From assembly GCA_034667725.1 (NCBI GenBank), contig JAXDQS010000010.1, forward strand, positions 217,937 to 281,936: 64,000 nucleotides of DNA. Direction: 5' to 3'. Within the stretch, counting starts at the first letter, position 1. Each line of letters begins with the position of its first letter. Source of the stretch: Thermoplasmata archaeon. Lineage in GTDB: Archaea; Thermoplasmatota; E2; JACPAO01; JAHFTW01. Below are positions 3,749 through 61,202 of the stretch, in pieces. The position numbers and the translations under genes were made by a program. The notes under the pieces were generated by a model, which saw only the letters and a list, made by a program, of their open reading frames with translations, had not been told where the DNA came from and did not search any database.

Positions 3749-4954
3749 ATGCGCATGCACCCGCGACCGACATTGAAGCTCCGCCTGCCCTCTGCTGCCC
3801 TGCCGCTGCTGCTCCTGCTGTCCTCCGTGGGCCTGGCCGCCCCCGTCGCTGCGGAGGAATCGCCCCCGGCCGGCTGCGCCCCCACCGGCCTCAGCGGCTT
3901 CTACCAGGACGACGTCGTGTACCTGCAATGGGACGCGACCGCGGGCGCCACGGCCTACGACCTCTACCACGACCCCGGCGACGGCGAACTGGTGTACTTC
4001 ACCACCGTCTATGCGCCCGAGACGCAGACCTACGACCCCACCGTCGTGGCCGGGCGCACCTACCGCTACCTTGCCACCGCCTACGTGGACGGCATCGAGA
4101 CCCAGAGCTGCGGCCCCATCTCCGTGACGACCACGGCGCCGCCCTGCGCTCCCCAGGACTTCACCGCCACGGGCCAAAGCGACGGCATCCTGCTCCAGTG
4201 GACCGCGACGGAGGGCGCGACCCAGTACGACATCTACCGGTGGGACGACACCGACCCCGGCGGGCAGCTGCTGGCGAGCGTGCAGCCGCCCGCCACCCAG
4301 TACTTCGACGGGCAGACCGTCCCGGACGTCTGGTACTGGTACGGCGCGGTGGCCATCGTCGACGGCGCCACGACCGACGGCTGCGGCAGCGTGGTCGCCA
4401 AGATGGACACGTCCGAGACGGGGCCGGCCCCTGACCCGAACGTCTGCGCCCCCGCCGACTTCACGGCGACCCCCATCGGCAGCTTCGTGCAACTCTCCTG
4501 GACCGCCACCGTCAACGCCTCGCAGTACAACATCTACCGCGCCCGCGAGGACGGCGCGTTCCGCCTCGTCATCCTGGGCGACGCCAGCACCACCTCCACC
4601 ATCGACACCCAGGTCGAGGCGCAGACGACGTACCACTACTACGCGACCGCGGAAGGCGGCGGCGTCGTGACCCCGAGCTGCGGCATCGTGACCGTGACGA
4701 CCCAGGGCGAATGCTCCCCGATGCTCACCGTCACGCGCGGCGACGGCGTCAACCACCTGGAGTGGGGCTTCCTGCCCGCGGCGGAGCACTACAACGTGTA
4801 CGTGGGCAAGAACCCGCGGCACATGACGCTCCTGGCCTCGGTGTTCAACGGCAACGAATACCACCACACGGTTCACGACCCCAAGGCCAAGCTCCACTAC
4901 GAGGTGCGCGCGGTGGTGGACGGCGAGGAGAGGCCGGCCTGCAACACCGCCTGA
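3749..4954 (+). CDS. Secreted protein with four FN3/Ig-like ~85-aa repeats
   Basis: Signal peptide (MRMHPRPTLKLRLPSAALPLLLLLSSVGLAAPVAA). Four repeats each start CAP/CSP and contain an aromatic (Y/W)-(D/N)-(I/L/V)-Y-(H/R/V) motif. Start codon approximate. Confidence 0.55.
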   Translation: MRMHPRPTLKLRLPSAALPLLLLLSSVGLAAPVAAEESPPAGCAPTGLSGFYQDDVVYLQWDATAGATAYDLYHDPGDGELVYFTTVYAPETQTYDPTVVAGRTYRYLATAYVDGIETQSCGPISVTTTAPPCAPQDFTATGQSDGILLQWTATEGATQYDIYRWDDTDPGGQLLASVQPPATQYFDGQTVPDVWYWYGAVAIVDGATTDGCGSVVAKMDTSETGPAPDPNVCAPADFTATPIGSFVQLSWTATVNASQYNIYRAREDGAFRLVILGDASTTSTIDTQVEAQTTYHYYATAEGGGVVTPSCGIVTVTTQGECSPMLTVTRGDGVNHLEWGFLPAAEHYNVYVGKNPRHMTLLASVFNGNEYHHTVHDPKAKLHYEVRAVVDGEERPACNTA

Positions 4955-4984
4955 GGCCTCCACGCGCAGCCAAGGCCCTCGGGC

Positions 4985-5110
4985 CCGCCGGCCTTTCCGG
5001 TGCAGCCACTTGTTTTCCGCTCATCGGAAGCTGCGCGACGGCCCCGCCCCCAAGGGCAGGGTTCCACCGGAAGCAAGGGGGTCTCTGAAGGGGGCGGATA
5101 CCTATATTTC
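4985..5110. other. Candidate replication origin region with ORB-like elements upstream of orc1
   Basis: gttccaccggaagcaagggggtc at 5061-5083 resembles the archaeal origin recognition box (TTCCA-N-GGAA dyad plus G-string). A second G-string and partial dyads (ttccggtg at 4994, ttttccgctcatcggaagc) lie nearby. No strongly AT-rich unwinding element is visible. Confidence 0.35.
5102..5109 (+). promoter_or_regulatory. TATA-box-like element upstream of orc1
   Basis: ctatattt is an AT-rich octamer in a ~70% GC background, ~45 nt upstream of the in-frame ATG at 5153. Confidence 0.3.
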
Positions 5111-5152
5111 CCATGCCCGTCTTGGCACGAATCCCGCGGGGGTCCAGGACCC

Positions 5153-6523
5153 ATGGAACCCGTGCAGCCGCTGGGAGGCGGAGGCGCGGCGGAGGGTCCA
5201 CGGCACCGAGCTGGGAGGTTTCCTTCGTTGGCTGTCAATGACTTGTTTGGCCAGTTGCTCCAGGTCGAGCCCCTCTTCGTGAACAAGGAGGTCATGCGGG
5301 CCTCCTACACGCCCGACGACCTGCCGCACCGGGACACGGAGATCCGCTCGCTCGGCAGCCTGCTGGTCCCCGCCCTGCGCGGCGAGACCCCGTCGAACGT
5401 CTTCATCTACGGCAAGACCGGCACGGGCAAGACCGCCTGCGTCAAGTACGTCGGCAAGGAGCTCAGCCACAAGGGCGTCGAGCTCGGCAAGCGCGTCAAC
5501 CTCATCTACATCAACTGCGAGATCGTCGACACCCAGTACCGCGTCCTGCAGAACATCGCCAACGCCTTCGTCCCCGCAGAGAACTGGAACCACCGCATCC
5601 CCTTCACCGGCTGGCCCACGGACGAAGTGTACGAGGCGCTGCGGCGCTACGTCGACGGCTGGATGAAGGCCGACGACACCCAATGGGTCCGCGACCCCAG
5701 CCGCGTCGGCGGCGAGGTCACCATCATCGTGCTCGACGAGGTGGACAAGCTCAAGGGCGACGAGGTCCTCTACAACCTCACCCGCATCAACGGCGACCTG
5801 GCCCAGAACAAGGTCAGCGTCATCGGCATCTCGAACGACCTCAAGTTCACCGAGTTCCTCGACCCCCGCGTCAAGTCGTCCCTCGGCGAGGAATCGATGA
5901 TCTTCGCGCCCTACGACGCCAAGCAGCTCGAGGACATCCTGATGCAGCGCGCCACCATGGCGCTCAAGCTGAACGTCGTCCAGGACGGCGTCGTGCCCCT
6001 GTGCGCCGCCCTGGCCGCCCGCGAGCACGGCGACGCCCGCCGCGCCCTCGACCTCCTCCGCGTCGCCGCCGAATTGGCCGAGCGCGACCGCGCCCCCAAG
6101 GTCACCGACGCCCACGTCCGCATGGCCCAGAACAAGATCGAGCTGGACCGCATCAGCGAGGTCGTGCGCACCCTGCCCACCCAGAGCAAGCTCGTCCTGC
6201 TGGCCACCATCCTCGGCGAGGAGGCCAACCGCGACCAAGGCGTCCACACCCTCACCACCGGCGAGGTGTTCGACGTCTACAAGGACCTCTGCAAGCACAC
6301 CGGCAGCGACGTGCTGACCCAGCGCCGCATCACCGACCTCATCAGCGAGCTCGACATGCTCGGCATCTTCACGGCCCGCGTCATCTCGAAGGGCCGCTAC
6401 GGCCGCACCCGCGAGATCCAGATGAGCTGCCCCATCGACAGCACCAAGCGCGTGCTGGAGGAGGACGAGCTCATCCGGACGGTCGTGCAGCACAAGCCGA
6501 AGAAGCAGCATCGTCTGACTTGA
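5153..6523 (+). CDS. orc1: Orc1/Cdc6 replication initiator (AAA+ ATPase with C-terminal winged helix)
   Basis: Walker A GKTGTGKT, Walker B IIVLDEVD, and the conserved N-terminal YTPDDLPHRDTEI motif. Start uncertain: in-frame ATG at 5153 or TTG near 5228; the ORF-track start at 5000 is probably too far upstream. Confidence 0.85.
   Translation: MEPVQPLGGGGAAEGPRHRAGRFPSLAVNDLFGQLLQVEPLFVNKEVMRASYTPDDLPHRDTEIRSLGSLLVPALRGETPSNVFIYGKTGTGKTACVKYVGKELSHKGVELGKRVNLIYINCEIVDTQYRVLQNIANAFVPAENWNHRIPFTGWPTDEVYEALRRYVDGWMKADDTQWVRDPSRVGGEVTIIVLDEVDKLKGDEVLYNLTRINGDLAQNKVSVIGISNDLKFTEFLDPRVKSSLGEESMIFAPYDAKQLEDILMQRATMALKLNVVQDGVVPLCAALAAREHGDARRALDLLRVAAELAERDRAPKVTDAHVRMAQNKIELDRISEVVRTLPTQSKLVLLATILGEEANRDQGVHTLTTGEVFDVYKDLCKHTGSDVLTQRRITDLISELDMLGIFTARVISKGRYGRTREIQMSCPIDSTKRVLEEDELIRTVVQHKPKKQHRLT
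6485..6519 (+). repeat. Direct repeat copy 1 (last 35 nt of the orc1 coding sequence)
   Basis: gtgcagcacaagccgaagaagcagcatcgtctgac recurs 96 bp downstream. Confidence 0.7.
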
Positions 6524-6580
6524 CCTGGCCGGGGGGCCGCAGGCCTTGCCGCGGGGCGACCCTCGGGGCGGAGCCCCCGG

Positions 6581-6620
6581 GTGCAGCACAAGCCGAAGAA
6601 GCAGCATCGCATCGTCTGAC
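6581..6620 (+). repeat. Direct repeat copy 2 (duplicate of orc1 3' end with a 5-nt insertion)
   Basis: gtgcagcacaagccgaagaagcagcatcgCATCGtctgac; identical to copy 1 except for the inserted catcg. Confidence 0.7.
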
Positions 6621-6626
6621 GCCATC

Positions 6627-6668
6627 CACCGAGGACACCGAGACCACCGAAGTTCGGTGTCCTCGGTG
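6627..6668. terminator. Perfect 14-bp-stem hairpin between convergent orc1 and nob1
   Basis: caccgaggacaccg (6627-6640), 14-nt loop, cggtgtcctcggtg (6655-6668). Lies between two convergent stop codons. Confidence 0.4.
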
Positions 6669-6682
6669 CGCTCGGCGGATGG

Positions 6683-7201
6683 TCAGTCGTTGCCCCGCAT
6701 CGCCGGCTTGTGGGCTCCGCCCTGCACCGGCTTCGCCTTCACCGGCGACCCGCACACGATGCACTCCTCGCGCTTCGGCATCGTGTCGAACCAGCGGCCG
6801 CACCCGATGCAGCGCGGCCGGAAGTCCAGCGTCGCCGCGATGCCTTCGGTGTTGACCGTCTGCGTGCGCACGCCCAGGCGGCGCGCCACATCGAGGAGCG
6901 TGTAGTCGTCCGTGACCAGCGTGCCCGCCAGGTCGACGGCGAGGGCCGCGAGGCTCAGGTCGGCCGCGGACAGGCGGACCAGGTTGCCGGCCGCGGTGGC
7001 GACGTCGCGCACCCGCTCGACGGCCTCGGGTGTTGCGTCGCGGACCTGGAGGCCGGTGGCGATCCAGTTGTCGTAGCGGCGCGCGTCGCGGCCCCCCGTG
7101 GAGATTTCGGCGGCGGCCTCCGGCGTCGTGGCCCAGTTGGCAGAGCGGGGCGGGTCTTTGCCGCCAAGGAGCAGGCTGGTGTCCAGGACGAGCCAGGGCA
7201 C
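6683..7201 (-). CDS. nob1: Nob1-like PIN-domain endonuclease with C-terminal zinc ribbon
   Basis: 172 aa. N-terminal PIN-like acidic residues (VLDTS..., TDDYTLLDVA) and C-terminal CIGCGRWF...ECIVCG zinc ribbon, the archaeal Nob1 architecture. Confidence 0.6.
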   Translation of the reverse strand: MPWLVLDTSLLLGGKDPPRSANWATTPEAAAEISTGGRDARRYDNWIATGLQVRDATPEAVERVRDVATAAGNLVRLSAADLSLAALAVDLAGTLVTDDYTLLDVARRLGVRTQTVNTEGIAATLDFRPRCIGCGRWFDTMPKREECIVCGSPVKAKPVQGGAHKPAMRGND

Positions 7202-13008: not shown

Positions 13009-13223
13009 GATTTCAAAATTCCAAGTGGCCTGCGCGCGCCGGTTTGCAAGGAGTGCAAGGAAGGCCGCAATCCGCCGCAAAGCGGCGCGCCCTTCGGGGC
13101 GGTTTGCCGCCCCCCAATACGGCGTCAGGGGGTCCTTGGCGGGCCTCCAGCCCGCCGGCGGACCCCCTTCCTTGGACTGCGATGGCCGGAAACCGCCGCA
13201 GGCCTTCTTGGAATTTTGAAATC
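13009..13223. repeat. ~215-bp imperfect palindromic element with AT-rich 17-bp terminal inverted repeats (MITE-like or structured RNA)
   Basis: GATTTCAAAATTCCAAG at 13009-13025 is the exact reverse complement of CTTGGAATTTTGAAATC at 13207-13223. Further arm pairing GGCCTGCG/CGCAGGCC, CGGTTT/AAACCG, CAAGGAAGG/CCTTCCTTG; internal hairpins GCCGCaaaGCGGC and CGCCCttcgGGGCG. Confidence 0.5.
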
Positions 13224-33835: not shown

Positions 33836-35119
33836 ATGGAGGAGGCGGCGCCCACCGAGAGCCCCTTGCCGGGCGCCGGCGCCAAGGGCAAGCCGGTGCG
33901 CGTCCACCCCTACGCGCTCGAGCTGTCCACGGCCGCCGAGCTGCGCCGCGACCCGCGCATGGTCACCCTGTTCTGGGCCGGCCTGGGCACGGCGCTGGTG
34001 CTGCTGGGATTGGGGCTCGCCAACCGCTTCAGCCCCTGCCTGAACGGCGTCGGCCCCGAGCCCTGCGCCACCCCCGCGGCATGGACCAGCTGGGTCCAGC
34101 TTCCCCTGTTCGGCGGCCTTGCCCTGCTGGGCTTCGGCTTCGTGCAGCGCCAATGGGCCCGCCGCGTCACGCTTGCCGGCTGGCTGCTGTTCGGGTTCTA
34201 CTGGGCGCTCACCGCGCAGGACCTGTTCGTGGCCGAGGGCGGCGACATCGTCAACCTCTGCTTCGCCATCGTCGGCGTCTACTTCTTCGTCTACCTGGCC
34301 TACCACCAATGGCTCTCCGAGGCGCGCGGCATCGAGAACCTCACCGTCCGGTTCCTCAACATCGCCACCTTCGTCGCCGCCGGCTCCTACTTCGTCATCG
34401 ACAAGATCGAGCCGGTCCGCAAATGGCTCATCCTCACCGTCAGCCGCCACACCGAATGGATGCTGGGGCTGTTCGGGCAAGGCGCCGACGCCGGCCTCCG
34501 GGCCGTCTACAACCCCGCCGGCAGCACGAGCGACTTCCAGGCCGACCTGGCCCGCTTCTACTACGAGGGCCACCTCAACCACTGCCCCTCGCAGCCGAGC
34601 GACTGGTTCTCCAGCCTGATGCACTGGGACCCGTTCGCCCGCCAAGCCCTCGACGCCTGCCGCGACTTCTCGGCCCACGAGGCCGTCATCGTCCCCGTCT
34701 CGATCATCCTGGCCTGCACCGCCCTCCAGTCCATCATGCTGTTCGTCGGCCTGTTCATGGGCACCCCGGCCCCATGGAAGCGGCGCCTGCTGGCGTCGGC
34801 CATCGTCGCCGCCGTCGTGTACGTCCTCAACCTGCTGCGGAACACCGGCATCGTGTGGTTCTACGGCCAAGGCGAGGCCTCGTTCTGGATGATGCACGAC
34901 GCCGTCGGCAAGGGCGGCAGCCTGGTCGCCATGATCCTCATCGCGTTCGCCGCCTTCGCCTGGTTCCCCGAGTTCCTCAAGGCGCTCGTCGGCGTGCTGG
35001 ACCTGCCGCACCGCGACGGCCCCATCGAGCGCACGCTGCGCCTTGGCAGGCGGCGGCCCGACCAAGGCGCGCCGCCAGCGGAGCCGCCGGCCGAGACGCC
35101 GGCACCCCCCGTCCACTGA
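33836..35119 (+). CDS. Polytopic membrane protein, candidate exosortase/archaeosortase-family enzyme
   Basis: 427 aa, ~8 TM helices. Cys293 sits in a TM helix (SIILACTAL) and NLLRN lies 42 residues later, reminiscent of the archaeosortase catalytic Cys/Arg arrangement recalled from the literature. Family assignment is tentative. Confidence 0.4.
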   Translation: MEEAAPTESPLPGAGAKGKPVRVHPYALELSTAAELRRDPRMVTLFWAGLGTALVLLGLGLANRFSPCLNGVGPEPCATPAAWTSWVQLPLFGGLALLGFGFVQRQWARRVTLAGWLLFGFYWALTAQDLFVAEGGDIVNLCFAIVGVYFFVYLAYHQWLSEARGIENLTVRFLNIATFVAAGSYFVIDKIEPVRKWLILTVSRHTEWMLGLFGQGADAGLRAVYNPAGSTSDFQADLARFYYEGHLNHCPSQPSDWFSSLMHWDPFARQALDACRDFSAHEAVIVPVSIILACTALQSIMLFVGLFMGTPAPWKRRLLASAIVAAVVYVLNLLRNTGIVWFYGQGEASFWMMHDAVGKGGSLVAMILIAFAAFAWFPEFLKALVGVLDLPHRDGPIERTLRLGRRRPDQGAPPAEPPAETPAPPVH

Positions 35120-35177
35120 AGGCGGGGTCGCGCCCGGCCTCCGATTTAATCATTTGCGCTCTGGGCCAGTGTTGGAC

Positions 35178-38100
35178 ATGGGCTGCAAACGGTCAAGAAG
35201 GCACGGCGGTCGCTGGGCCTTGACAATGGTCGTCCACCGCTTGTCCCCGCTCGCCGCTGCCTTCATCCTGGCAGTCTCCACCCTCGCCGCCGCGCCGGCG
35301 TCGGCCCTCATCGTCGGCCCCGTCGGCCCCATCGACCCCGACCTCATCAACGTAGACTGCGAGGACAGTGCCGCCGTTAGGGCCGCCTGCAACGCGGTGG
35401 CCACCCTCACGGAGGACCCTGGCGAGATCACCGTCGGGTGCGGCGACGGGTACGCCGGCAACGCCTGCCGCGAAGCCTTGGACACCCTCGAGGACCCGCC
35501 CGCGGCCTGCGAGGCCGTCACGTTCGCGATCTGCGAGGCGGTGGCCCGGCTGCTGGCCGACGACGGCGGCGACCCCGTCGGCCAGTGCCTGCACGACCTC
35601 GGCTTCGACACCGTCGTGATGCCCCAGCCCGGCACCAGCATCGTCAACCTGGACTGCTCGCAGCTTGGCGAGACCCTGGCGAGCCTCTACGTCATCCTGG
35701 ACAACCTGGCGGCGCGGGGCGGCGCCACCCTGAACTCCTGCCTGGCGCTGTTGGGCGACGGCATTGCCAACCTGGAGTCGAGCGGCCCGCCACTGGTGGA
35801 TTGCGAAGGCCTCGGCGAGACCGCCCGCGACACCGTCCAGGCCGCCATGGACCTGGTGGACCGCGAAGCCGACGACGCCATGCGCACCGTCGAGGCGTGC
35901 GTCTACGGCGCGCCCCCGCCGTCCGCCGGCGCCGCGCTGTGCCGCTCCCTCTACAACACGCTCGTCCTCTACCTCGCCTTCGCCGTCCAGACCGGCCTCC
36001 AGGCGGCCAACCACCAGCTTGAGTGCCAAGGCCTCGACACCGTCTCCATCACGGCGCCCGCCCCCGAGGGCGACCCGCCCGCCACCTTCGGCCTGCCGGA
36101 GGAGTGCGTGACCGCCCACCTGCTCTTGACCGCCGTCCAGGAGGCCGTCGCCAACGTGCTGCGCATCGCCGGCGACCTCGCGCCCTCCGTCTCGCTCTGT
36201 GTCGCCGAGGTCCCCGGCGGCCCCACCACCGTCACCCTCGACTGCCGCTACGTCGAGCGCGTCGTGCGCACCGTCGGCGACGCCGAGGCCACCGTCATGC
36301 TCGTCGTGCAGCAATACCTCGACGACTGCCAAGGCCGCGGCGCGCCCCCCGAGGGCCTGCCGAGCTGCCGCGAGCAGGTCGAGAACCTGCAGCGCATCGT
36401 GGACCGCAACTTCGCCGGCGCCTGGCGTGCCGCCCAGGAAGCCGCCGCCGACCTGCAGGCCTGCGCCGCGGCCGCCGCCGCGAGCACCTGCGCGGCCACG
36501 CAAGACTGCGCCCTGCTGCCCTGCGTCCTGCCCGGCGCCTGCGACACCGGCTGCGCCAGCAACGGCACCACCTCCTACCCGGCGCGCGCCAACGGCACCG
36601 CCACCGACGCCCGCATCGGCAACGTCTTCGAGTTCGTGGCCCCCGTCACGGGCGCCGCGGTCCCGGTCGACGTCCACGACTACGACGGGGACGGCATCCC
36701 CGACCTGCTGGACCCCGTCAACCTCCCCTCCGAGACCCTGCGCACGACCTCCGGCGCCGACAACCTGACGCTGCTGGACGGCCTCGGCGAGCAAGGCTTC
36801 GTCCTCTTGATCGAGCCCGGCCACCGGGAGGCCCAGCTCGTGGCCGCCGACCCGCTCGGCGTGGCCCTGTCGCTGCTGCCCGTCGAGGTGCTCGACGCCG
36901 CCACCACCCTCCAGCTTTTGGGCCAGACCCACGGCGGCCACGTCGCCGACCTGCTGGCCAGCGCCCTCAACGAGAACATGACGGTGAACGTCACCTGGGT
37001 CGTCCCGCAGCTGCCCACCGTCGTCCCCCTGCATTGGGCCGGCGGCGCCATCCCCGCCGACGGCAGCTGGCTCATGGCCCGCTCCGACCCGACCCGCCGC
37101 GTCACGTTGGCGCTCTCCGGCCTTGACGTCAAGCTGGAGGCCCCCAGCGCCAGCCACGCCAGCACCGACCCCGACCTGTCGTACCGCTGGGAGTTCCTCA
37201 ACCTCTGGGGCAAGAAGGGCTTCTGCTTCGACCCCACCACCTACACCGGCGGCACCGGCCAGTGCGAAGGCAAGGCCGAGCCCGGCTGGCTGCGCGCCTA
37301 CAGCGGCCGCGCCCACTACGCCCTCCAGGCCGTCGCCGAGAACCTGGAGCGCGGCCTGTCCGACCTGGCGGCGACCCCGGCGGGCACCAACGGCACCGCC
37401 CTGGAGCCCATCCTGGCGCCGACCGAGGGCCTGCGCGGCGACGAGGTCCCCGCCGACGCCATCGACCTGTTCGACCCCTCCTCGCTGGTGCACGCCATCG
37501 GCGACAACAGCACCTCGTTCCCGCCCGGCGTCGGCGTCGACTACCAGGTCCCGGCCCGCGAGCCGCGCTCCCTGCCGCGCCCCGCCATCCTGCAAGCCCC
37601 CGACGCCCTGCTCACGACCGACGTGGACCTGTCGGCCTACCGCCCGACGCGCACCTTCCGCTTCGACGCCCAGTTCTACGAGACCCCCGGCACGCCGCGC
37701 GACCTGCAGCTGCTGACGCTGCACATCACGCCGGCCGACGGCAACGACGCCGCCCAGACCTTCGTGCTCGACGGCCGCGCCTTCACGGAGTACCTGCGCC
37801 TGCTGCCCGGCGAGCAGCTCGCCCTCGATATCGACGCCGATCACTTGGACGGCTTCGTCCAGGTCTCCAAGGACGTCAACGCCGACGGCTGGGAGGACCT
37901 CGTCGTGCAGGTGCCCCACTTCAGCACCGTCACCATGGACGTCCACAGCGACAACTCGATCGCCTACCCCATGTGGACCATGGTCAAGATGACCAGCGCC
38001 ACCGAGGGCTGGCTCACCGGCCCTTACGGCGCCATGTACAAGTACAGCGCCGGCCGCGTCTACCGTCACGACATCCCCGGCCTCGCGGGCCAGATGCGCT

Positions 38101-41100
38101 CCATCGCGCTGCACGTCGTCGGCCCCAACGACGTCTGGGTGGCGGGCGACGGCGACTGCAACCTCGCCGACCCGTCGCCGTTCATCGCCCACTACTACTA
38201 CGGCAGCTGGAGCATCTTCCGCACGTCGCAGGTCGGCCCCGGCTGGGCCTGCGAGGGCTTCATCACCATCTGGATGGACCCCACCGGCTCCTTCGGCTAC
38301 GCGGGCGGCACCGACGGCATGTGGTTCAAGTACGCCAGCGGCGCGTGGAACCCCGCCCCCAGCCCCGCGCCCGGCGCCTGCGTCCGCGACATCGCCTTCG
38401 ACAGCAGCGGCCGCGGCTACGTCGGCGCCAACACCGACTTGTGCCTGGCCAGCGGCCGCCCCGCCATCAGTTACTGGGACGGCAGCTCGTGGAGCAGCCA
38501 CAGCACCTACGGCAGCACCGAGATCTGGAGCGTCATGGACGGCTCCGGCCAATGGGCCGCCGCCATTCCCAAGGACCCGGCCACCCACGGCATCCTGCAA
38601 CAGTCCGGCTCGTCCTGGTCCCTCGCCTCCGTCCCCGTTCCGGCGGGCCATTACTACGGCATGACGCGCGCGCCCGACAGCCGCCTCTGGTTCAGCGCCA
38701 CCGACCGCAGCAACCGCGGCTTCCTGGTCGAACGCGACCCGTCCGGCACCTGGACGACGCACTGGTTCCAGACCCGCATCGGCTTCCTGCGCGACGTCTC
38801 GATGTCGTCCAGCACGGCGGGCCTCGTCGTCGGCGACAAGAACATCCTGGCCATCCAGGTCTCGTCGGCCGCCGCCGCCTCCGCCGACTGGATCTGGGAC
38901 AGCCTGTCGCCGACCTCCGGCACCACCAGCACGACGTTCGCCGGCCGCGACTCCGGCACCCGCGACCCCGACAGCGGCAGCGGCACCGTCGCGCACACCT
39001 GGAACTGGGGCGACGGCTCGGCCAACGACCTGGCCGCCAACGCCGACCACGTCTACCAGGCGCCCGGCACCTACGCCGTCACCCACCAGGTGCGTGCCAG
39101 CAGCACCGGCCAGGCCAACGCGCACGGCTGGACCGTCACGGTGAACCCCCAGTCCACCAGCATCGGCCCCAGCACCTCGGACTCGCTGCCCGCCGGCACC
39201 CGCGTGGCCCCGAAGTACTACCAGTACACCAACGCGGCCAGCGACGGCCAGGCGCATGACTTCCGCGTCGTGCTCGGCGGCGCTGCCGGCGTCAAGATGA
39301 CGATCCGCAAGGGCACCGGCATGGGCGACTTCAGCGCCGGCGGCAACTGGCCCAACTACGGCGCCGCCGGCCGCGACCTGTCCGGCCCCATCGCCTACGG
39401 CCAGTCCATCACCATCCGGGTCGAGCAGGACACCAGCGTGAGCCCCTACGGCGGCTCCTACACCCTCACGGTGACGCAGCTGCCGCCCCCGCCCAACCCG
39501 GCCTTGAGCAGCCTGGTGCCGCAGCCGATGGAGGCGCTGACCCGCGGCTACGAGGAGCTGACGTTCCGCGTCACCTGGACCGACACGCAAGGCTACCAGC
39601 CCCGCGACGCCAGCGGCGCCACCAGCCCGCCCACCATCACGCTGGACACCAACGGCGACGGCGCCCTGGAGACCTACTCCATGCACCTGGACCGGCCGCT
39701 GTTCACCGGCTCCACCTACAAGGCGATCTACTCGTACTCGACCTACCTCAAGGAAGGCAGCGGCACCCAGCCGATCTACAAGGCTTGGGACACGCAGCCC
39801 TACCAGCAGGTCGCCACCGGCGCCTGGATCTACGCCCGCGCCACCGTCCTCAAGGCCTACGACTTCGAGGCCGACGCCGTCGACCGCCTCCCGGCAGGCT
39901 TCGCCAACGTCCCGCTGGCCGGCCACCCGGTGAGCTACTGGCACGTCACCGACACCGCCAAGGCGGGCACGCCCGACCGCGTCGCCTTCGGCGCGCACGG
40001 CAAGGCCCTCTGGTTCGGCCAGGAGTCCTCCGGGAACTACGTCGACGCCGACGGCCGCGCCCCGGGCGGCGCCCTCGAGACGCCGGTGCACGACCTGAAC
40101 CGCATGGACAAGCCGGTGCTGTCGTTCGCGTCGCTCTACGAGACCCAGGACGACGGCAGCAGCATCGACGTCAAGCAGGTCCACATCAAGGCCCGCGACC
40201 CCGGCGGCGTCTGGGGCGGCTGGGTGCTGCTGCAGGCCGTCCACGGCCCCGGCTTCCTGCCCGGCCGCTGGAACACCGTGGCCGCCAGCCTCGCCGACTA
40301 CGCCGGCAAGGAGGTCGTGCTGCGCTTCCAGTTCCAGGCCGACAACGCCAACAACGGCTACCTCGGCTGGTACGTCGACGACATCGTGCTCGGCAGCGAC
40401 GCCGACGGCGACCTGATCCCCGACCTGAAGGAGGCCAACCGCGTCATCGGGCTCCGCAACGGCGCCGTCGGCCCCGTCAACGTCGCCCCCGGCCAGACCG
40501 GCGCCAGCTACGTCAACCGCGTCAGCACCTCCGGCTTCCAGGGTGTCGTCGCCGAGGCCGTCCTCTACTCCGAGCGGCCGCAGGACCTGCGCGTCGAGCT
40601 GCTGGTGCCGCCGGCGGGCACGCTCCCCGGCGACTTCCCCGCGCTCACGACCGAATTCCGGCCGTTCAAGCTGAACCCGGCCGCGGCGCCCGCCACCGAC
40701 ACGGTGTGCGGCGTCACCAGCCCGGTGCGCAACTCCCTGTCGCCCTGGTACGCGACCTACCCGAACCTGCTCTTGGACCCCGCCACCGGCTTCGACAACC
40801 CCCGCATCGGCGGCGGCTTCGGCCCCGACTCGCGCCCGACCGTCGTGCCGATCCACGCCCTGGAGTTCAAGCGGGTCGACGGCGTCGGCCTTGCCATCAA
40901 GGCGGACCTCACCGAATGCCTCAAGGCCGCCGGCTTGAGCGAGTTCGGCGTCCACGACGTCGTGCTGCGCGTCCAGAACACCGCCGCCTCCGGCACCGCG
41001 ACCATCGAGTCGTTCGCGGTCACCGGCGTCGGCCGGTCGTCGATGTTCAGCGCCCGCAGCGCCGCCATCGGCATGGGCGACTACCGCGCCAGCGACGGCG

Positions 41101-42806
41101 GCTGGCTGGGCGGCGGCACGCCGCTGGGCCCCGACGCCGACTGGGACGGCATGGCGCGCGGCGAGGACGGCAACGACATGGTGCCGACCTACGTGCCGTT
41201 GGTCTTCGTCGACTACAACAAGCCCGAGGAGGGCCTGCAGTTCGCCCTCGACAGCAAGCGCGTCGTGCTGTCCGTCGACATCCTGGCCACCACCGGCACC
41301 ACCACGCGCGACGTCGCGACCCCGGTGGCCCAGGCCTACGGCGAGTGGCGCAACTACGTCCTGCCGGCCAGCCGGTTCGCCGGCGCCGACAGCCTGCGCA
41401 TCGTCGTCAGCCTGGCCGGCGGCTCGGTCATGACCATCGAGGCGGCCTTCAAGGACCGCCAGCCGCAGCTGGCCAGCCTCACCGAGTCCTTCCTGGCCGA
41501 CCCCGGCAACCCCTCGCCGGAGCCTGGCAGCCACTACCTGACCGACGCCGAGCGCAACCTCGGCTACATCATGGGCGGCGCCAAGGCCCTCTACTGGGTC
41601 TACAAGGCGGGCAAGCTCATCACGGGCGTCGGGGCCGCCGAGACCGCCCTCGAAGGGGCCACCCTGGTCGTCAAGACCGTCGGCAAGTGGGCCATCGTCA
41701 AGGTCGCCAAGGAGGGCCTCAAGTCGGCCTACGCCTCCAGTGGCGAGCTCACCATCTACGAGAAGACCTCGCGCCACAACATCTACAAGGGCCGGACCTC
41801 GCGCGGCGACTACCCCGAGGTCTACGACCTCTTGGACGAGGCCATCACCAACGCCCAAGGCCCGTACCCCACCATCGGCGGCAACAACGTCTGGTTCTAC
41901 GAGAAGGCGGTGGACCCGTCGACGGGCGCCATCGCCAAGCTCTACGTGCTGGAGACCCGCCAGGACGGCGACCTGTTCCGCGGCTGGGGCCACTCGCTTG
42001 CCAGCTGGGGCCAGATGGTGTCGCGGCCCTACACGGCCGGCGCGGACGCCAACACCGTCCACGCCACCGACGTCTCGGACATCCAGAGCATCGAGCGGCT
42101 GGCCAAGGTCGCCGGCCCGTACCCGAGCTTCGGGAGCTTCCTGTGCGCCGTCACTTGCTATGCCGAGGTGGACGGCGACCCCGGCCGCGTCCACCTGCAA
42201 GCCTACGGCGTCAACTGGGACAACCGCCACGACAGCAAGCTCGACGTCGACGCCGGCTGGGTCACGGCGGCGCGCTACGCCGCCTACCGCCCGAACTCGT
42301 GGGTGCCTTCCATCAACGAGGGCCAGCGCGACCTCCAGCTCGCGGGCTGGATCCGGTCGTACCGCTTCATCCACGACAACGGCGTCCACGCCTCGGCCTC
42401 GCAGGACGCGAAGGCCTTCTGGGGCGACGACTACGCCTCGAACCCAGGATGCGCTGCCGAGACCACGCGCCGCTGCCAGGCGCCGACCGCGACCTTCGAC
42501 GGCCACGGCGTCTTCGCCCAGGGCTTCACCCTGCGCTGGACGACCTCGTCGAGCCCCACGGTCCTCAAGACCGACAAGGCGGCCAGCTTCGGCCTCTACA
42601 CCAACTCCGACCGCGGGCCCTGGGATGGCCGCTCCGGCATCGAAAAGAGGCGCGACACCCTGGCGACGTCGCTCGGCACCCCGGGCTCCGGCCATGACGC
42701 GAACCTCATCCTGGCGCTCGACGCCAGCGGCGCCACCTGGGAGGACGACCACTACTACCCAGAGTACGGCCCGCACACCTTGGAGGAGTTCTACGACGTC
42801 CCGTAG
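35178..42806 (+). CDS. Giant secreted multidomain protein (~2540 aa)
   Basis: Single uninterrupted frame. Signal peptide, Cys-rich helical N-terminal ~450 aa, propeller-like W/Y/G-rich repeats, a PKD-like domain (TVAHTWNWGDGSANDLAANADHVYQAPGTYAVTHQV), a GWYVDDIVLG motif and a ~600-aa K/Y/I-rich C-terminal module. The antisense ORF is low-complexity. Confidence 0.7.
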   Translation: MGCKRSRRHGGRWALTMVVHRLSPLAAAFILAVSTLAAAPASALIVGPVGPIDPDLINVDCEDSAAVRAACNAVATLTEDPGEITVGCGDGYAGNACREALDTLEDPPAACEAVTFAICEAVARLLADDGGDPVGQCLHDLGFDTVVMPQPGTSIVNLDCSQLGETLASLYVILDNLAARGGATLNSCLALLGDGIANLESSGPPLVDCEGLGETARDTVQAAMDLVDREADDAMRTVEACVYGAPPPSAGAALCRSLYNTLVLYLAFAVQTGLQAANHQLECQGLDTVSITAPAPEGDPPATFGLPEECVTAHLLLTAVQEAVANVLRIAGDLAPSVSLCVAEVPGGPTTVTLDCRYVERVVRTVGDAEATVMLVVQQYLDDCQGRGAPPEGLPSCREQVENLQRIVDRNFAGAWRAAQEAAADLQACAAAAAASTCAATQDCALLPCVLPGACDTGCASNGTTSYPARANGTATDARIGNVFEFVAPVTGAAVPVDVHDYDGDGIPDLLDPVNLPSETLRTTSGADNLTLLDGLGEQGFVLLIEPGHREAQLVAADPLGVALSLLPVEVLDAATTLQLLGQTHGGHVADLLASALNENMTVNVTWVVPQLPTVVPLHWAGGAIPADGSWLMARSDPTRRVTLALSGLDVKLEAPSASHASTDPDLSYRWEFLNLWGKKGFCFDPTTYTGGTGQCEGKAEPGWLRAYSGRAHYALQAVAENLERGLSDLAATPAGTNGTALEPILAPTEGLRGDEVPADAIDLFDPSSLVHAIGDNSTSFPPGVGVDYQVPAREPRSLPRPAILQAPDALLTTDVDLSAYRPTRTFRFDAQFYETPGTPRDLQLLTLHITPADGNDAAQTFVLDGRAFTEYLRLLPGEQLALDIDADHLDGFVQVSKDVNADGWEDLVVQVPHFSTVTMDVHSDNSIAYPMWTMVKMTSATEGWLTGPYGAMYKYSAGRVYRHDIPGLAGQMRSIALHVVGPNDVWVAGDGDCNLADPSPFIAHYYYGSWSIFRTSQVGPGWACEGFITIWMDPTGSFGYAGGTDGMWFKYASGAWNPAPSPAPGACVRDIAFDSSGRGYVGANTDLCLASGRPAISYWDGSSWSSHSTYGSTEIWSVMDGSGQWAAAIPKDPATHGILQQSGSSWSLASVPVPAGHYYGMTRAPDSRLWFSATDRSNRGFLVERDPSGTWTTHWFQTRIGFLRDVSMSSSTAGLVVGDKNILAIQVSSAAAASADWIWDSLSPTSGTTSTTFAGRDSGTRDPDSGSGTVAHTWNWGDGSANDLAANADHVYQAPGTYAVTHQVRASSTGQANAHGWTVTVNPQSTSIGPSTSDSLPAGTRVAPKYYQYTNAASDGQAHDFRVVLGGAAGVKMTIRKGTGMGDFSAGGNWPNYGAAGRDLSGPIAYGQSITIRVEQDTSVSPYGGSYTLTVTQLPPPPNPALSSLVPQPMEALTRGYEELTFRVTWTDTQGYQPRDASGATSPPTITLDTNGDGALETYSMHLDRPLFTGSTYKAIYSYSTYLKEGSGTQPIYKAWDTQPYQQVATGAWIYARATVLKAYDFEADAVDRLPAGFANVPLAGHPVSYWHVTDTAKAGTPDRVAFGAHGKALWFGQESSGNYVDADGRAPGGALETPVHDLNRMDKPVLSFASLYETQDDGSSIDVKQVHIKARDPGGVWGGWVLLQAVHGPGFLPGRWNTVAASLADYAGKEVVLRFQFQADNANNGYLGWYVDDIVLGSDADGDLIPDLKEANRVIGLRNGAVGPVNVAPGQTGASYVNRVSTSGFQGVVAEAVLYSERPQDLRVELLVPPAGTLPGDFPALTTEFRPFKLNPAAAPATDTVCGVTSPVRNSLSPWYATYPNLLLDPATGFDNPRIGGGFGPDSRPTVVPIHALEFKRVDGVGLAIKADLTECLKAAGLSEFGVHDVVLRVQNTAASGTATIESFAVTGVGRSSMFSARSAAIGMGDYRASDGGWLGGGTPLGPDADWDGMARGEDGNDMVPTYVPLVFVDYNKPEEGLQFALDSKRVVLSVDILATTGTTTRDVATPVAQAYGEWRNYVLPASRFAGADSLRIVVSLAGGSVMTIEAAFKDRQPQLASLTESFLADPGNPSPEPGSHYLTDAERNLGYIMGGAKALYWVYKAGKLITGVGAAETALEGATLVVKTVGKWAIVKVAKEGLKSAYASSGELTIYEKTSRHNIYKGRTSRGDYPEVYDLLDEAITNAQGPYPTIGGNNVWFYEKAVDPSTGAIAKLYVLETRQDGDLFRGWGHSLASWGQMVSRPYTAGADANTVHATDVSDIQSIERLAKVAGPYPSFGSFLCAVTCYAEVDGDPGRVHLQAYGVNWDNRHDSKLDVDAGWVTAARYAAYRPNSWVPSINEGQRDLQLAGWIRSYRFIHDNGVHASASQDAKAFWGDDYASNPGCAAETTRRCQAPTATFDGHGVFAQGFTLRWTTSSSPTVLKTDKAASFGLYTNSDRGPWDGRSGIEKRRDTLATSLGTPGSGHDANLILALDASGATWEDDHYYPEYGPHTLEEFYDVP

Positions 42807-55681: not shown

Positions 55682-56671
55682 CTAGAGCAGGCCCGCCTTC
55701 TGCAGCGTCAGCAGGTCCTCGGTGGAGAGCTTCTCGCCCTTCTTGAAGCGCTGGAACACCATCTCCGCCGCCGCCTCGTTCTTGGCCTGGGTGGCCGCCG
55801 AGGGCTGCCCGCCGCCGTGCTGGCCGGTGGCGTCCTCGATCTCGTGGATGGCGTTGACGAACTGGATGTACGTCTTGTGAATCTCGTCCGCCTCCATCTT
55901 GGCGACGACGAACTTCTCCTGGAGCTTGTCCGCCTTCTTGCGGAGCTTGTCGGACTCCTTGTAGAGCTTGATCATGGCGTCGTGCTCCGACTGGGCCTTC
56001 TCCGCCATCTCGCCGACCTTGGCGTGCGCCTTCTCGGCCTTCTCCTTGAGCTCCTCCGCCTTCTCCAGGCTGGCCTTCAGCTCGGGGTCGGCGCGCAGCA
56101 GCTTCTCCTTCTCGCGGATGAGCTTGCCGATCTCCTTGAGGCGCTCCATCAGCGCCTTCTCCTTGGCGACCGTCAGCACCGAGGTCATCTGCTGGAACTC
56201 GAGCTGCTTGGCCTCCTTCTTGAGCTTCGCGACCGTCAGGGTGGCGTCGCCCTCGGGCATCCGGGTGCGCCGCAGCACCTCCGCGGACTTCTGCGCCTCG
56301 TCGGCCGCCCGGTTGGCCTCGTCCCGCAGCTCCTTCGAGCGCTTGACGCCCTCGTTCATCTCGTCGCGGCGCTTCTTGTGCTCGTTGGCCTGGTTCACGA
56401 GCCCGCGGACCTCTGCGTTGTAGGTGTCGCGCTCCTCGGCGTGCTTGCGCGCCTCGTCGTTGAGGCGGTCGCGCTCGCGCCGGAGCATGTTGGCGCGGCT
56501 CTGGAGGTCCTCCTTCTTCATGCCGGGCTTGGGCCCGTTGGGGTTCGGCTTGGGAGGCTCGGGGGTCGCCTCGACGGGGGCGGCCGCGGTCTCGGTCTCA
56601 GGGGCTTCGGGCGCGGGGGGCGACTCGGGCGCCGGCGGCGCCGCCGAGGCCACATCGGTGGTCTCACTCAT
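55682..56671 (-). CDS. Archaeal coiled-coil protein
   Basis: ~330 aa. Pro/Ala-rich N-terminus, long K/E/R-rich heptad region, conserved-looking C-terminus (VFQRFKKGEKLSTEDLLTLQKAGLL). The ORF-track frame extends antisense through the next gene and is a run-on. Confidence 0.55.
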   Translation of the reverse strand: MSETTDVASAAPPAPESPPAPEAPETETAAAPVEATPEPPKPNPNGPKPGMKKEDLQSRANMLRRERDRLNDEARKHAEERDTYNAEVRGLVNQANEHKKRRDEMNEGVKRSKELRDEANRAADEAQKSAEVLRRTRMPEGDATLTVAKLKKEAKQLEFQQMTSVLTVAKEKALMERLKEIGKLIREKEKLLRADPELKASLEKAEELKEKAEKAHAKVGEMAEKAQSEHDAMIKLYKESDKLRKKADKLQEKFVVAKMEADEIHKTYIQFVNAIHEIEDATGQHGGGQPSAATQAKNEAAAEMVFQRFKKGEKLSTEDLLTLQKAGLL

Positions 56672-56832
56672 GGTCCAGTCACCAGGATGGGCGTTCGCAC
56701 AAGGGCCCCCTAGATAACGGGTGCGGCTGAGGAGGGCACCATAATCCCCGCGCCCTAACGGTGCATGAGGGGACAGAAGGAGGATGTAGGCGGCAAAAAG
56801 GTGGCCAAAATGTGCTACGGTGCCGCCGATTC

Positions 56833-56897: not shown

Positions 56898-57154
56898 TCC
56901 AGTCGGCGGTGCGCGACGGGCCAGCGGCTCCAGGCGACCTGCACGGCCTTCGGTCCAACCCCCCTCGTGCCGCGCCACCGTCTCCGCGTACAGCTCCAGC
57001 TGCCGCAACAGCCGCCCGGCCGTGCCATGCGACAGGCCGCCCCGTTCGCGCCCCGCCCCCCCAACCTCGCGCGTGGCCCCAGCAACGGGAACCCCAAGCC
57101 CAAGGCCGAAAGTCGTAGCCGGCCCGCTGTCCGCCCAGGACGCCGCCTGCAATG

Positions 57155-57162
57155 CTTTATTT
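57155..57162 (+). promoter_or_regulatory. TATA-like box (within hairpin CCTGCAAtgctttatTTGCAGG), leaderless spacing to the ATG at 57188
   Basis: ctttattt centred ~30 nt upstream of the ATG that begins the signal peptide. Confidence 0.35.
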
Positions 57163-57187
57163 GCAGGACAGGGTGGTGACGCCCAGA

Positions 57188-59221
57188 ATGACATCGTCTG
57201 CCGCCTGGGCCGCCTTCGGCGTCCTGGCCGCCCTTGCCGCCACCGGCATCGTCCTGTTGGCGACCCCCGCCGAGGCCGCGGTCATCCTGGAGCCGGCCGG
57301 CCCGCTGGAGCAAATCCACATCTCGCGCTCCAAGACGCTCGACTGCCAGGTGATGTACATCGGCACGGTGTACAGCTTCCCCGGCAGCGAGGCGGACGGC
57401 GAGTTCTGGGGCGTCGGCTCGGGCTCGTGCGGCACTTTCCTGCACGTGGTGGGCGACCAGACCTACGGCCCGCCGGTCGAAGGCTACGGCCCGCCCTACA
57501 TGGCGGGCGGCATCCCGCCCACGCCCTACACGCCCGTCAGCCAGGTCGGCCCCACCGGCACCGGCACCGTCGCGGACCCGTGGACCATCGACACGGTGGC
57601 GCGCGCCGTCGGCCCCGGCACCTTGGTCGAGCTGCACCAGGTGGACGAGTACGTCAAGGGCGACGAGTACTACACCACCACCGTCACCGTCAGCAACCTC
57701 GGCGCCGCCGCGGTGGACCTCATCCTCTACCGCGCCGGCGACTGCTACCTCACCACCACGAGCGCGGACCCCGACTCGGGCTACGGCTACCTCGACGTCG
57801 CCAACCACACCGTGGCCTGCACCGAGACGCCCGGCGGCGCCACCGGCCGCATCATCGAGTGGGTGCCCCTCACGCCCGGCGCGCACGCCGAGCACAACGA
57901 GTGGGACGACATCTGGATGCGCCCGATGTACGGCGACGAGATGGCCGACACCTGCCTGTGCGCCACGTTCCTCGACAACGGCGCCGGCCTGAGCTGGGCG
58001 TTCAGCCTCGGCGTGGGCCAGGACAAGACCTACGCCAACAACAACGTGTTCTCGCCGACCGGCGTCCCGCCGCCCCCCGACCCGGACGTCCCGCCCGTCG
58101 CCCGCGCCACCGCCGCCCCCGGCGAGCGCACCTGCTTCTCGGCGCCGTTCTTCTTCAGCGGCACGGCCTCCACCGACTCCGACGGCACCATCGTCTCCTA
58201 CCTGTGGGACTTCGGCGACGGCTCCCCCGTCGGCGCGGGCGCCACCACCAGCCACGACTACCCCGCCGCCGGCACCTACACCGTGCGCCTCACGGTGACC
58301 GACGACGACAAGCTTGCGCACACGGTCACCTTCACCATCACGAGCCTCGGCGACACCGACTGCCCGTTCACGCTGCGGGTGTTCGACTCGACGGTGCGCG
58401 AGGGCGCCCTGCTGCGCTTCTGCATCCAGGCCGAGGACCTCGACGGCGGCGCGTTCACCTACGCCGCGACCTACCCCGGCGGCCTGCCGGCCGGCCTCGA
58501 GTTCGATGTCGCCGGCTGCCTCGACTGGACCCCCGCCCAAGGCCAGGCCGGCAAGTACGACTGCCTCACCTTCACGGCCATGCAGGGCGGCGGCCCCACC
58601 GGGGCGCCGTTCCAGACCGCCACCGACTGCGCCACCATCACCGTCGTGGCCGTCCCGCCCGTCCAGGCGACCGACGACACCGACATGGACGGGGTCGCCG
58701 ACGAGGCCGACAACTGCCCGTCGCACGTCAACCGCGACCAGGCCGACAGCGACCGCGACGGCCCCGGCGACGCCTGCGACCCCGTGGCGCCGCAGGCCCG
58801 CGACCCCAGCGTCCCGACGCGCAACCTCGCCGGCCCCGGCGACCAGGACGGCGACCGCGTCGCCGACCGCCTCGACAACTGCCCGGAGCGCCCGAACGCC
58901 TCGCAGGACGACCGCGACCGCGACGGCCTCGGCGACGGCTGCGACCCCGACGAGGACGGCGACGGCATCATCGTCGGCGGCCCCTTCACCGACAACTGCC
59001 CGCTCGCGGCGAACCGCGACCAGGCCGACGCCGACCGCGACGGCGTCGGCGACGCCTGCGACCTGGCCGGCGTGACGGCCGCGTTCGTGCCCGCGCGCGG
59101 CAACGAGCCCGCCCTGCACTCCGCCCGCGCCGGCCCCTCCGTGTGGCCGTGGGTCGCGGCGGCGGCGCTGGGCGCGCTGGCCGCGGCGGCCTTGGTGGCG
59201 GTCGTGCGCCGGCGGGCCTAG
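57188..59221 (+). CDS. Surface protein with PKD domain, Ig-like domain, TSP3 repeats and C-terminal TM anchor (paralogue 2)
   Basis: Signal peptide MTSSAAWAAFGVLAALAATGIVLLATPAEA; PKD motif (YLWDFGDGSPVGAGATTSHDYPAAGTYTVRLTV); CPxT...RFC Ig-like region; DxDxDGxxDxxDNCP repeats; C-terminus GPSVWPWVAAAALGALAAAALVAVVRRRA. Confidence 0.6.
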   Translation: MTSSAAWAAFGVLAALAATGIVLLATPAEAAVILEPAGPLEQIHISRSKTLDCQVMYIGTVYSFPGSEADGEFWGVGSGSCGTFLHVVGDQTYGPPVEGYGPPYMAGGIPPTPYTPVSQVGPTGTGTVADPWTIDTVARAVGPGTLVELHQVDEYVKGDEYYTTTVTVSNLGAAAVDLILYRAGDCYLTTTSADPDSGYGYLDVANHTVACTETPGGATGRIIEWVPLTPGAHAEHNEWDDIWMRPMYGDEMADTCLCATFLDNGAGLSWAFSLGVGQDKTYANNNVFSPTGVPPPPDPDVPPVARATAAPGERTCFSAPFFFSGTASTDSDGTIVSYLWDFGDGSPVGAGATTSHDYPAAGTYTVRLTVTDDDKLAHTVTFTITSLGDTDCPFTLRVFDSTVREGALLRFCIQAEDLDGGAFTYAATYPGGLPAGLEFDVAGCLDWTPAQGQAGKYDCLTFTAMQGGGPTGAPFQTATDCATITVVAVPPVQATDDTDMDGVADEADNCPSHVNRDQADSDRDGPGDACDPVAPQARDPSVPTRNLAGPGDQDGDRVADRLDNCPERPNASQDDRDRDGLGDGCDPDEDGDGIIVGGPFTDNCPLAANRDQADADRDGVGDACDLAGVTAAFVPARGNEPALHSARAGPSVWPWVAAAALGALAAAALVAVVRRRA

Positions 59222-61125: not shown

Positions 61126-61202
61126 CAAAAGGCAACGTTCTCGCAGGGTGCGCCGTCGCCTGCCTGCCAAGGTTCAAGAGCCGGAATCAAAATCCGGGGC
61201 TG

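Follow-up and report, generated by a model that had tools for sequence, protein, structure and literature searches.

Does the intergenic DNA directly upstream of orc1/cdc6 in an uncultured Thermoplasmata archaeon contain a replication origin, or does the origin-type element found there serve the orc1 gene itself? The DNA examined is a 64,000 nt stretch (positions 217,937–281,936) of contig JAXDQS010000010.1 in GenBank assembly GCA_034667725.1. This whole stretch, with a GC content of 72%, is called the window here, and all coordinates refer to it. A preliminary description had proposed a candidate oriC adjacent to orc1, based mainly on an ORB-like TTCCA/GGAA dyad with a G-string at 5061–5083. 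The coordinates were right and, judged by its sequence, 5061–5083 is a canonical archaeal origin recognition box (ORB). It is thus an element of the expected kind at the expected place in an uncultured high-GC Thermoplasmatota archaeon. Our best overall explanation, held with about as much confidence as doubt, is that it is a high-affinity Orc1 site and represents the proximal box of a shrunken oriC1-type module that is fused to the orc1 promoter. The main features are:

4955–5227: intergenic region, 273 bp and 70% GC, between a plus-strand gene that ends at 4954 and orc1
5061–5083, plus strand: ORB GTTCCACCGGAAGCAAGGGGGTC, with a TTCCA-CC-GGAAGC core at 5062–5074 and a G-string at 5077–5081
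5228–6523, plus strand: orc1/cdc6, TTG start, 431 aa, encoding an Orc1-1-class initiator

The defining parts of an ORB are TTCC and GAA motifs accompanied by a G-string (PMC1904270, PMC1868953), and the G-string is part of the published consensus (PMC1868953, PMC4153887). In the window, a TTCC...GGAA dyad (5062–5072) lies within the core sequence TTCCACCGGAAGC (5062–5074), and GGGGGT follows a few nucleotides 3' of the core at 5077–5082. With up to three mismatches permitted, the 23-mer occurs only once in the 64 kb, and none of 100 shuffles yielded a match. It agrees with the Methanomassiliicoccales and pan-archaeal ORB consensus sequences, both as quoted in PMC4153887, at 15/23 and 14/23 ungapped positions, respectively.

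A scan for relatives, restricted to one genome per species, returned 21 loci encoding relatives of the window Orc1. Every orc1 orthologue was from a metagenome-assembled genome (MAG) of an uncultured member of the Thermoplasmatota from groundwater, soil or sand. The core set comprises 18 loci including the window, with Orc1 protein identities of 81–93%. When the 330 nt upstream were aligned, the mean column identity was 43% and three blocks stood out. The first is the ORB, with the consensus (T/C)TCCAYnnGAAATGAAGGGGT. The second, AACCTATATTTCC, is found approximately 20 nt downstream of the ORB, and the third, CGTCAyCGGAAgC (here called el2), is 43 nt upstream of it. Over 19 aligned loci, the T, C, A and GGGG columns of the ORB are invariant and the G.AA columns are either invariant or at least 90% conserved. 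There is exactly one full ORB in each of the 18 loci, always on the orc1 strand and 160–204 nt from the orc1 start (166 nt in the window).

A 21 nt leave-one-out matrix was built from the 17 other loci, with the window's own site excluded. The window ORB scored 20.8 with this matrix and ranked first of 127,960 21-mers, the runner-up scoring 10.4. With a 21 nt matrix, there is one ORB in the 64 kb window and one per approximately 6–11 kb in each of the 17 relatives' loci. The preliminary description had named frequent occurrence at random positions as a finding that would count against a candidate oriC, and here a second full ORB was found neither in the 64 kb of the window nor within ±5 kb in any relative. 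When metagenomes were scanned for the ORB pattern, most matches were in unrelated low-GC archaea (by our estimate, approximately 100 chance matches are expected for a collection of this size), and no member of the window's clade was recovered away from orc1. Among metagenomic loci with an ORB within approximately 500 nt upstream of an orc1 match, the box is on the orc1 strand in 7/9, as it is in the window. A chance resemblance without function could be argued from the shortness of the motif and from nothing else. It is effectively refuted by the lack of shuffle matches, by the first rank obtained with an independent matrix, and by the retention of position and orientation in 18 genomes despite divergence of the surrounding intergenic DNA.

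The preliminary description also had the element adjoining orc1, and the ORB does precede the start of a real Orc1-1-class gene. The product contains Cdc6_C, Cdc6_lid and AAA domains (Pfam). The closest solved structures are Orc1-1 of Sulfolobus solfataricus (2qby_A, 2.9e-105) and ORC1 of Aeropyrum pernix (2v1u_A, 7.2e-98), whereas the class-II ORC2 was matched at only 2e-11. The DNA-contact motifs are kept, namely TQRR and GRYG in the winged helix (wH) and PFTG in the initiator-specific motif (ISM), and we assign the initiator beside the ORB to the Orc1-1/Cdc6-1 class. The TTG start at 5228 is preceded by the Shine-Dalgarno sequence GGGAGG at 5213–5218, and a start codon (TTG, GTG or ATG) after GGGAGG is conserved in 16/18 aligned loci. 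In one relative (L018 4998–6065), the orc1 orthologue can be read for 355 aa and then diverges, ending ...SRRARSSTCTRTSAR, which suggests a frameshift through assembly error or a pseudogene.

The site thus combines a TTCC/GAA core and a G-string with rarity, an orc1 locus and an initiator of the cognate class, and it is very probable that Orc1 docks at this ORB in the orc1 promoter. One could instead suppose that the conserved box is an activating or repressing site of another DNA-binding protein and merely resembles an ORB. ORB binding is a prediction, and neither el2 nor a conserved block in the orc1 leader (5154–5178) has an assigned binder. However, the conserved columns are exactly those that define an ORB (TCCA, GAA and GGGGT), and the box adjoins the gene of the cognate initiator class. 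The family consensus TTCCACnnGAAATGAAGGGGT is also nearly identical to that of the published orc1/cdc6.1 ORBs of the Methanomassiliicoccales, GTTCCAGTGGAAATGG-AGGGGTA (PMC4153887), which are likewise Thermoplasmatota. We consider a different binder improbable.

Comparison with known origins revealed both agreement and divergence. In one published Methanomassiliicoccales pair located upstream of orc1 the spacing is 47 (PMC4153887), which is comparable to the 43 nt that separate el2 and the ORB in the window. However, the Methanomassiliicoccales ORBs are of full strength, mostly paired, and found both upstream and downstream of orc1 (PMC4153887), whereas the second upstream element in the window lacks the TTCC half and the G-string, and nothing ORB-like was found downstream of orc1. 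Sulfolobus oriC1, Aeropyrum ori1 and Pyrococcus oriC also have a TTCC...GAA core with a G-string upstream of an orc1-1 orthologue, and share with the window an Orc1-1-class initiator that keeps its wH and ISM motifs. In these canonical origins the G-string of the orc1-proximal box points toward the gene, and the window ORB has this same orientation. They differ in having at least two strong inverted ORBs around an AT-rich DNA unwinding element (DUE), in intergenic regions that are usually 0.5–2 kb. The window has one strong ORB with degenerate partners, and no AT-rich stretch in its 273 bp intergenic region.

The second conserved block coincides with the orc1 promoter. The features between the ORB and orc1 are:

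5096–5109, plus strand: predicted orc1 promoter, with GGATAC, resembling a B recognition element (BRE), followed by the TATA box CTATATTT at 5102–5109
5090–5097, plus strand: second G-run GGGGGCGG, an inverted repeat of CCGCCCCC at 5044–5051
5132–5227, plus strand: putative orc1 5' leader of approximately 96 nt, with a conserved block at 5154–5178

The AT-rich ctatattt reported previously is present at 5102–5109, and CTATATTT is the conserved TATA box of orc1. It is intergenic and upstream of orc1. The 64 kb contain just 12 octamers with at least 7/8 A/T, and none of the others is found before position 13,010. The BRE-like hexamer is purine-rich in relatives (GGGAAC, GCGAAC or GGAAAC). The second G-string that had also been reported is present, but it is not conserved in relatives and is therefore probably incidental.

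Counted from the first base of the ORB, the TATA box is 40/41 nt away in 14 loci and 51 nt away in the remaining four (L001, L005, L011 and L018), the group-2 loci having been re-registered by eye on GGTTAT/CTAT. The difference of 10–11 nt corresponds to one helical turn. The four 51 nt loci are not a single group in a neighbour-joining tree of Orc1, which is poorly resolved at this depth; L011 is with the window, and L001 and L005 are apart. The ORB sits 20 bp upstream of the promoter with its G-string pointing to the TATA box, and the sequence of the intervening spacer is not conserved in relatives. Of the new findings, this rigid register is the strongest. As the ORB–TATA and el2–ORB spacings are both rigid, the protein bound at the ORB and the transcription machinery appear to work together. 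An autoregulatory operator would be expected to look like this, with the initiator's site kept in register with the promoter of the initiator's own gene, and from the phase-locked spacing we lean towards autoregulation of orc1 by Orc1. This role, which the preliminary description left out, is at least as well supported as origin firing, and the invariant spacing points to it at least as strongly.

It is conceivable, though we think it somewhat doubtful, that autoregulation is the whole of the function. Orc1, bound at the ORB and perhaps at el2, would then be a transcription factor for its own promoter, by the logic of the DnaA boxes in the dnaA promoter. Replication would start elsewhere or without a fixed origin, and the box would be a remnant of an ancestral orc1-linked origin. 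The two ORB–TATA distances, one helical turn apart across an unconserved spacer and with the longer distance in loci that do not form a clade, are as expected of such an operator, and a single strong site is enough for a regulator and too few for a canonical origin. Regulation of transcription is also known for Orc1 paralogues (Orc1-2; PMC9738581). However, the position and polarity of the box fit the proximal ORB of canonical origins, and no other ORB was found in the 64 kb or within ±5 kb in any relative. In addition, the centre of the ORB is approximately 60 nt upstream of the inferred transcription start site near 5132, which is unusual for an archaeal repressor and would suit an activator.

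DnaA boxes of the dnaA promoter and Haloarcula hispanica oriC2D (PMC3936714) offer a parallel, as both place an initiator site in or near the initiator's own gene, where it is able to couple the level of the initiator to its own expression or availability. In oriC2D, 11 ORBs are downstream of the gene, compared with one upstream in the window (PMC3936714). The likeness is a functional analogy only.

The leader downstream of the promoter is also partly conserved. The block at 5154–5178 reads TGGAACCC / CCCGTGCAGCC / GCTGGGAGG, and the conserved leader blocks are a CCCGCTTCGG-like sequence followed by CATGGAnCCGCTGGGAGG. GCTGGGAGG occurs twice, at 5170–5178 and 5210–5218, and only the second copy is usable as a Shine-Dalgarno sequence. 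On the minus strand, TTCCA/TGCA-type half-sites are found at 5154–5171, and 11/18 loci have a significant YTCCAYG half-site on this strand at +72 to +103. Three other interpretations of conserved sequence downstream of the ORB were rejected. The TATA block is not an inverted ORB (minus strand GGGAAATATAGG), as its matrix scores (1.2 in the window and −18 to +6.7 in relatives) are no better than those of the other AT-rich octamers in the window (−12 to +0.6) and reflect composition. The leader block is not an N-terminal extension of Orc1, as its frame relative to orc1 varies (out of frame in L001) and its 'start' is ATG, GTG, CTG or ATA. It is also not a structured RNA, as RNAalifold returned only a 4-pair stem (−0.74 kcal/mol) and no consensus fold.

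Upstream of the ORB, weaker relatives of it were found:

4958–4978, plus strand: CTCCACGCGCAGCCAAGGCCC, an ORB-like site whose G-string is degenerate; the main ORB is 104 nt further downstream, and the stop codon of the upstream gene (4952–4954, plus strand) immediately precedes the site
4985–5005, minus strand: weak inverted ORB-like site that reads CTGCACCGGAAAGGCCGGCGG on the minus strand, its TTCCA-type end facing the main ORB
5019–5031, plus strand: el2 GCTCATCGGAAGC, consensus CGTCAyCGGAAgC, which is ORB-core-like (CA-N3-GAA(A/G)C)

Matches to the 13 nt ORB core occur at 2.3–4.1/kb in the 300 nt upstream of the ORB compared with 0.04–0.28/kb in the other 210 kb, an enrichment of 15–58× across relatives. 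Of the ORB matches in the 64 kb of the window, the 273 bp intergenic region holds two of the top three and three of the top 34. The site at 4958–4978 is the third-best 21-mer in the window (leave-one-out score 9.7; core score 12.1). Plus-strand core-like sites at −93 to −113 have p<0.05 in 6/18 loci, and a site at exactly −104 is common to the window, L002 and L004. The inverted site at 4985–5005 ranks 34th of 127,960 (core empirical p=0.003) and is separated from the ORB by a 56 bp spacer. A minus-strand site at −58 to −71 is significant in only 6/18 loci.

Two weaker dyads that had been noticed before can be located here, TTCCGGTG at 4995–5002 and TTCCG-N5-CGGAA at 5015–5029. The former is the exact reverse complement of CACCGGAA (5065–5072) within the ORB. 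Within el2, CATCGGAAGC (5022–5031) repeats the ORB core CACCGGAAGC in direct orientation with 90% identity. The position of el2 is conserved (43/44 nt from the ORB in 15/18 loci and 42–47 nt in the other three) and its match to the matrix is weak; it is plausibly a low-affinity Orc1 site. The positions of the weak sites, el2 excepted, differ between genomes, and this looks like turnover under selection for some extra weak binding. A simple operator would not need such sites, and their enrichment counts against the regulatory role being the only one.

Several observations weigh against the region being an origin. No AT-rich DUE was found in any of the 18 loci, and this also favours an operator and nothing more. 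The intergenic region and the 56 bp spacer both have a GC content of 70%, and over the 400 nt that precede the ORB the minimum GC content per 40 nt is 0.40–0.60 across the 18 loci. Only one ORB is strong, and its inverted partner is weak and could not be recognised in the closest relatives L001, L005 and L011. In Sulfolobus and Haloarcula neither of the two inverted ORBs can be dispensed with (PMC12141716, PMC3936714). The GC skew of the window tracks the coding strand (r = −0.67) and does not change at 5 kb, and only 5 kb of genome sequence is available to the left of the site. Pooling of the 18 loci, described below, produced a skew shift to which only a few families of orthologous genes contribute, and it does not amount to independent evidence.

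Other observations suit an origin. The element is adjacent to and upstream of orc1/cdc6, as in oriC1-type origins, and the inverted candidate at 4985–5005, though a weak match, has the right polarity. In Sulfolobus oriC1 a 130 bp ORB3-DUE-ORB2 unit suffices for function (PMC12141716), so the small size of the region does not by itself exclude an origin. Relatives whose Orc1 is about 50% identical (L036, below) also have a textbook origin in the homologous position, with a proximal ORB oriented like that of the window.

No 150 nt segment of the 64 kb has a GC content below 53%. Locally, the least GC-rich 80 nt (5216–5295, 52.5%) are in the region of orc1 translation start. The lowest-GC stretch, at 55.7–57.1 kb, was considered as an alternative origin and rejected, being coding and free of ORB matches. 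Within it, 55682–56750 (minus strand; 53% GC over 150 nt) encodes a K/E-rich coiled-coil protein with a proline-rich N-terminus.

The plus-strand skew at third codon positions left of the ORB (−0.27 to −0.34, from three genes) is indistinguishable from the mean on the right (−0.31). When ±5 kb of all 18 loci were pooled, the plus-strand skew changed from left to right from −0.288 to −0.250 in plus-strand genes and from +0.188 to +0.246 in minus-strand genes. The shift (s_r = +0.022, naive standard error 0.011) has the sign that the usual rule predicts for an origin, and inverted skews have been reported in haloarchaea. It offers weak support for an origin. The candidate oriC that had been proposed is thus partly supported. 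The ORB and the adjacent orc1 are real, but an oriC would require at minimum two inverted ORBs flanking an unwinding element, and there is one strong ORB and no AT-rich DUE. The skew shows no switch at 5 kb in the window and, on pooling, a weak and non-independent shift.

Two textbook origins that came out of the metagenome-wide ORB scan, L036 and L073, indicate what is missing. In L036 (55% GC; Orc1 50% identical), an inverted ORB is followed by 170 nt of approximately 20% GC, an ORB, 150 nt of AT-rich sequence, a proximal ORB, a TATA box and orc1. As in the window, the proximal ORB is on the orc1 strand approximately 100–170 nt from the start codon and is followed by a TATA box. Unlike the window, L036 has two further ORBs, one of them inverted, and two AT-rich stretches of 150–170 nt (minimum 12.5% GC over 40 nt), and its TATA box abuts the G-string, whereas that of the window starts 20 nt after the ORB. 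L073, with a GC content of 65.6% and extended G-strings of the halophile type, has four ORBs in 800 bp and AT-rich patches. High-GC matches with multiple ORBs look haloarchaeal, as judged from the extended G-strings of L073 and the acidic Orc N-terminus of L031. The lowest 40 nt GC content is 0.125 in L036, 0.30 in L073 and 0.18–0.23 in two DHVE2-like loci, L020 and L021. In L036, L073 and H. hispanica oriC1 the G-strings point away from the unwinding region. If this rule is applied to the window, the ORB is of the orc1-proximal type and the unwinding region would be expected to its left.

The two DHVE2-like loci (L020 4887–4999 and L021 1086–1199; 48% identity) are arranged differently. A plus-strand ORB that overlaps the end of the upstream gene is followed by approximately 70 nt of AT-rich promoter, a minus-strand ORB and the ATG, with the G-strings facing inward. 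This layout, opposite to that of origins with outward G-strings, is more operator-like than origin-like. Two ORBs flanking an AT-rich promoter in relatives add to the case for a purely regulatory box in the window.

Taking both sides together, a shrunken oriC1-type module joined to the orc1 promoter would work as follows. The Orc1-1-type initiator, whose gene comes next, would dock at the ORB with high affinity. If solved Orc1–ORB complexes are a guide, one Orc1 monomer would place its winged helix on TTCCA..GGAA and its AAA+/ISM elements on the G-string. The ORB would be the orc1-proximal box, with low-affinity companions at 4958–4978 (plus strand), at 4985–5005 (minus strand) and, in a fixed position, at 5019–5031. 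The inverted site and the ORB would bracket the 56 bp spacer with the outward G-strings of a canonical ORB-DUE-ORB unit, and MCM may be loaded at this spacer. Bound Orc1 would also feed back on orc1 transcription, as suggested by the helical register between ORB and TATA box. For the full sequence of Orc1 binding, MCM loading and firing, the arguments for and against are in our view of similar weight, and whether the region fires as an origin is likewise about evenly balanced.

It is also possible, if unlikely, that the origin of this clade has been reduced to a single strong ORB without an AT-rich unwinding element. Initiation could then rely on the orc1 promoter, with bending by TBP and the open complex supplying the melting; the promoter is suggested as the melting site because approximately 8 kb contain no A+T-rich octamer other than the TATA box. 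Alternatively, the clade may no longer fire at orc1, and the ORB would remain only as a phase-locked transcriptional operator.

The neighbouring genes have housekeeping functions (carboxyltransferase, PIN, malate dehydrogenase, thermosome, UvrB, SRP54 and thiolase). No further replication genes were identified among Pfam-scanned open reading frames (ORFs) covering most of the 64 kb, and Rfam and tRNA scans of the window returned no matches. The upstream neighbour of orc1 is a gene for a 425 aa protein with a GH85_C-like segment, itself preceded by the carboxyltransferase gene. In most relatives the corresponding neighbour encodes an archaeosine tRNA-guanine transglycosylase with TGT, TGT_C2 and PUA domains (e.g. 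L001 2546–4594). Synteny breaks at approximately 4955–5005 in the window, and similarity to relatives, and with it the conserved module, starts at approximately 5005.

At the other end of orc1, the last approximately 36 nt of the gene are repeated 96–101 nt downstream (6485–6620). Positions 6485–6513 equal 6581–6609 (29 nt, 100%), and 6508–6519 equal 6609–6620. The second copy would read VQHKPKKQHRIV*, which is nearer to the Orc1 C-termini of relatives (...QNRLV*) than the actual ...QHRLT*. This duplicate is absent from L001–L015 and may have arisen by tandem duplication of the end of the gene, or may be an att-like scar. In L016 (6186–6470; Orc1 72% identical), an independent lineage, the orc1 3' end is also duplicated, 125 nt downstream (53 nt, 83% identity). 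All differences over 13 codons are synonymous and both copies encode MGVKPRKQLRLI*. L016 also has further repeats of 36 and 43 nt, including a terminator-like hairpin. Duplication of the orc1 3' end thus recurs in two lineages. In the window, a perfect inverted repeat at 6627–6668 (15 nt arms CACCGAGGACACCGA / TCGGTGTCCTCGGTG, 12 nt loop) separates the convergent orc1 and PIN-domain genes (the latter at 6683–7201, minus strand) and is likely a bidirectional terminator.

Farther away, a very large plus-strand ORF (34935–42806) spans 2,623 codons stop-to-stop with a GC content of 0.97 at third codon positions. Large ORFs at 57152–59221 and 60396–63659 contain PKD, thrombospondin type-3 and IgGFc-binding domains, and this neighbourhood suggests a cluster of secreted or surface proteins.

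The locus provides a testable Orc1 site and orc1 promoter for a lineage of Thermoplasmatota from soil and groundwater that has an unusually high GC content and has not been cultured, and it anchors the search for origins in these MAGs, with uses in contig orientation and coverage-based estimates of growth rate. It is atypical in combining one invariant ORB and a strict ORB–TATA register with the lack of an AT-rich DUE, though haloarchaea of similar GC content retain theirs. It is therefore a natural case for how much of an archaeal origin is needed, and bears on the question of whether Orc1-1 initiators also regulate the gene that encodes them.

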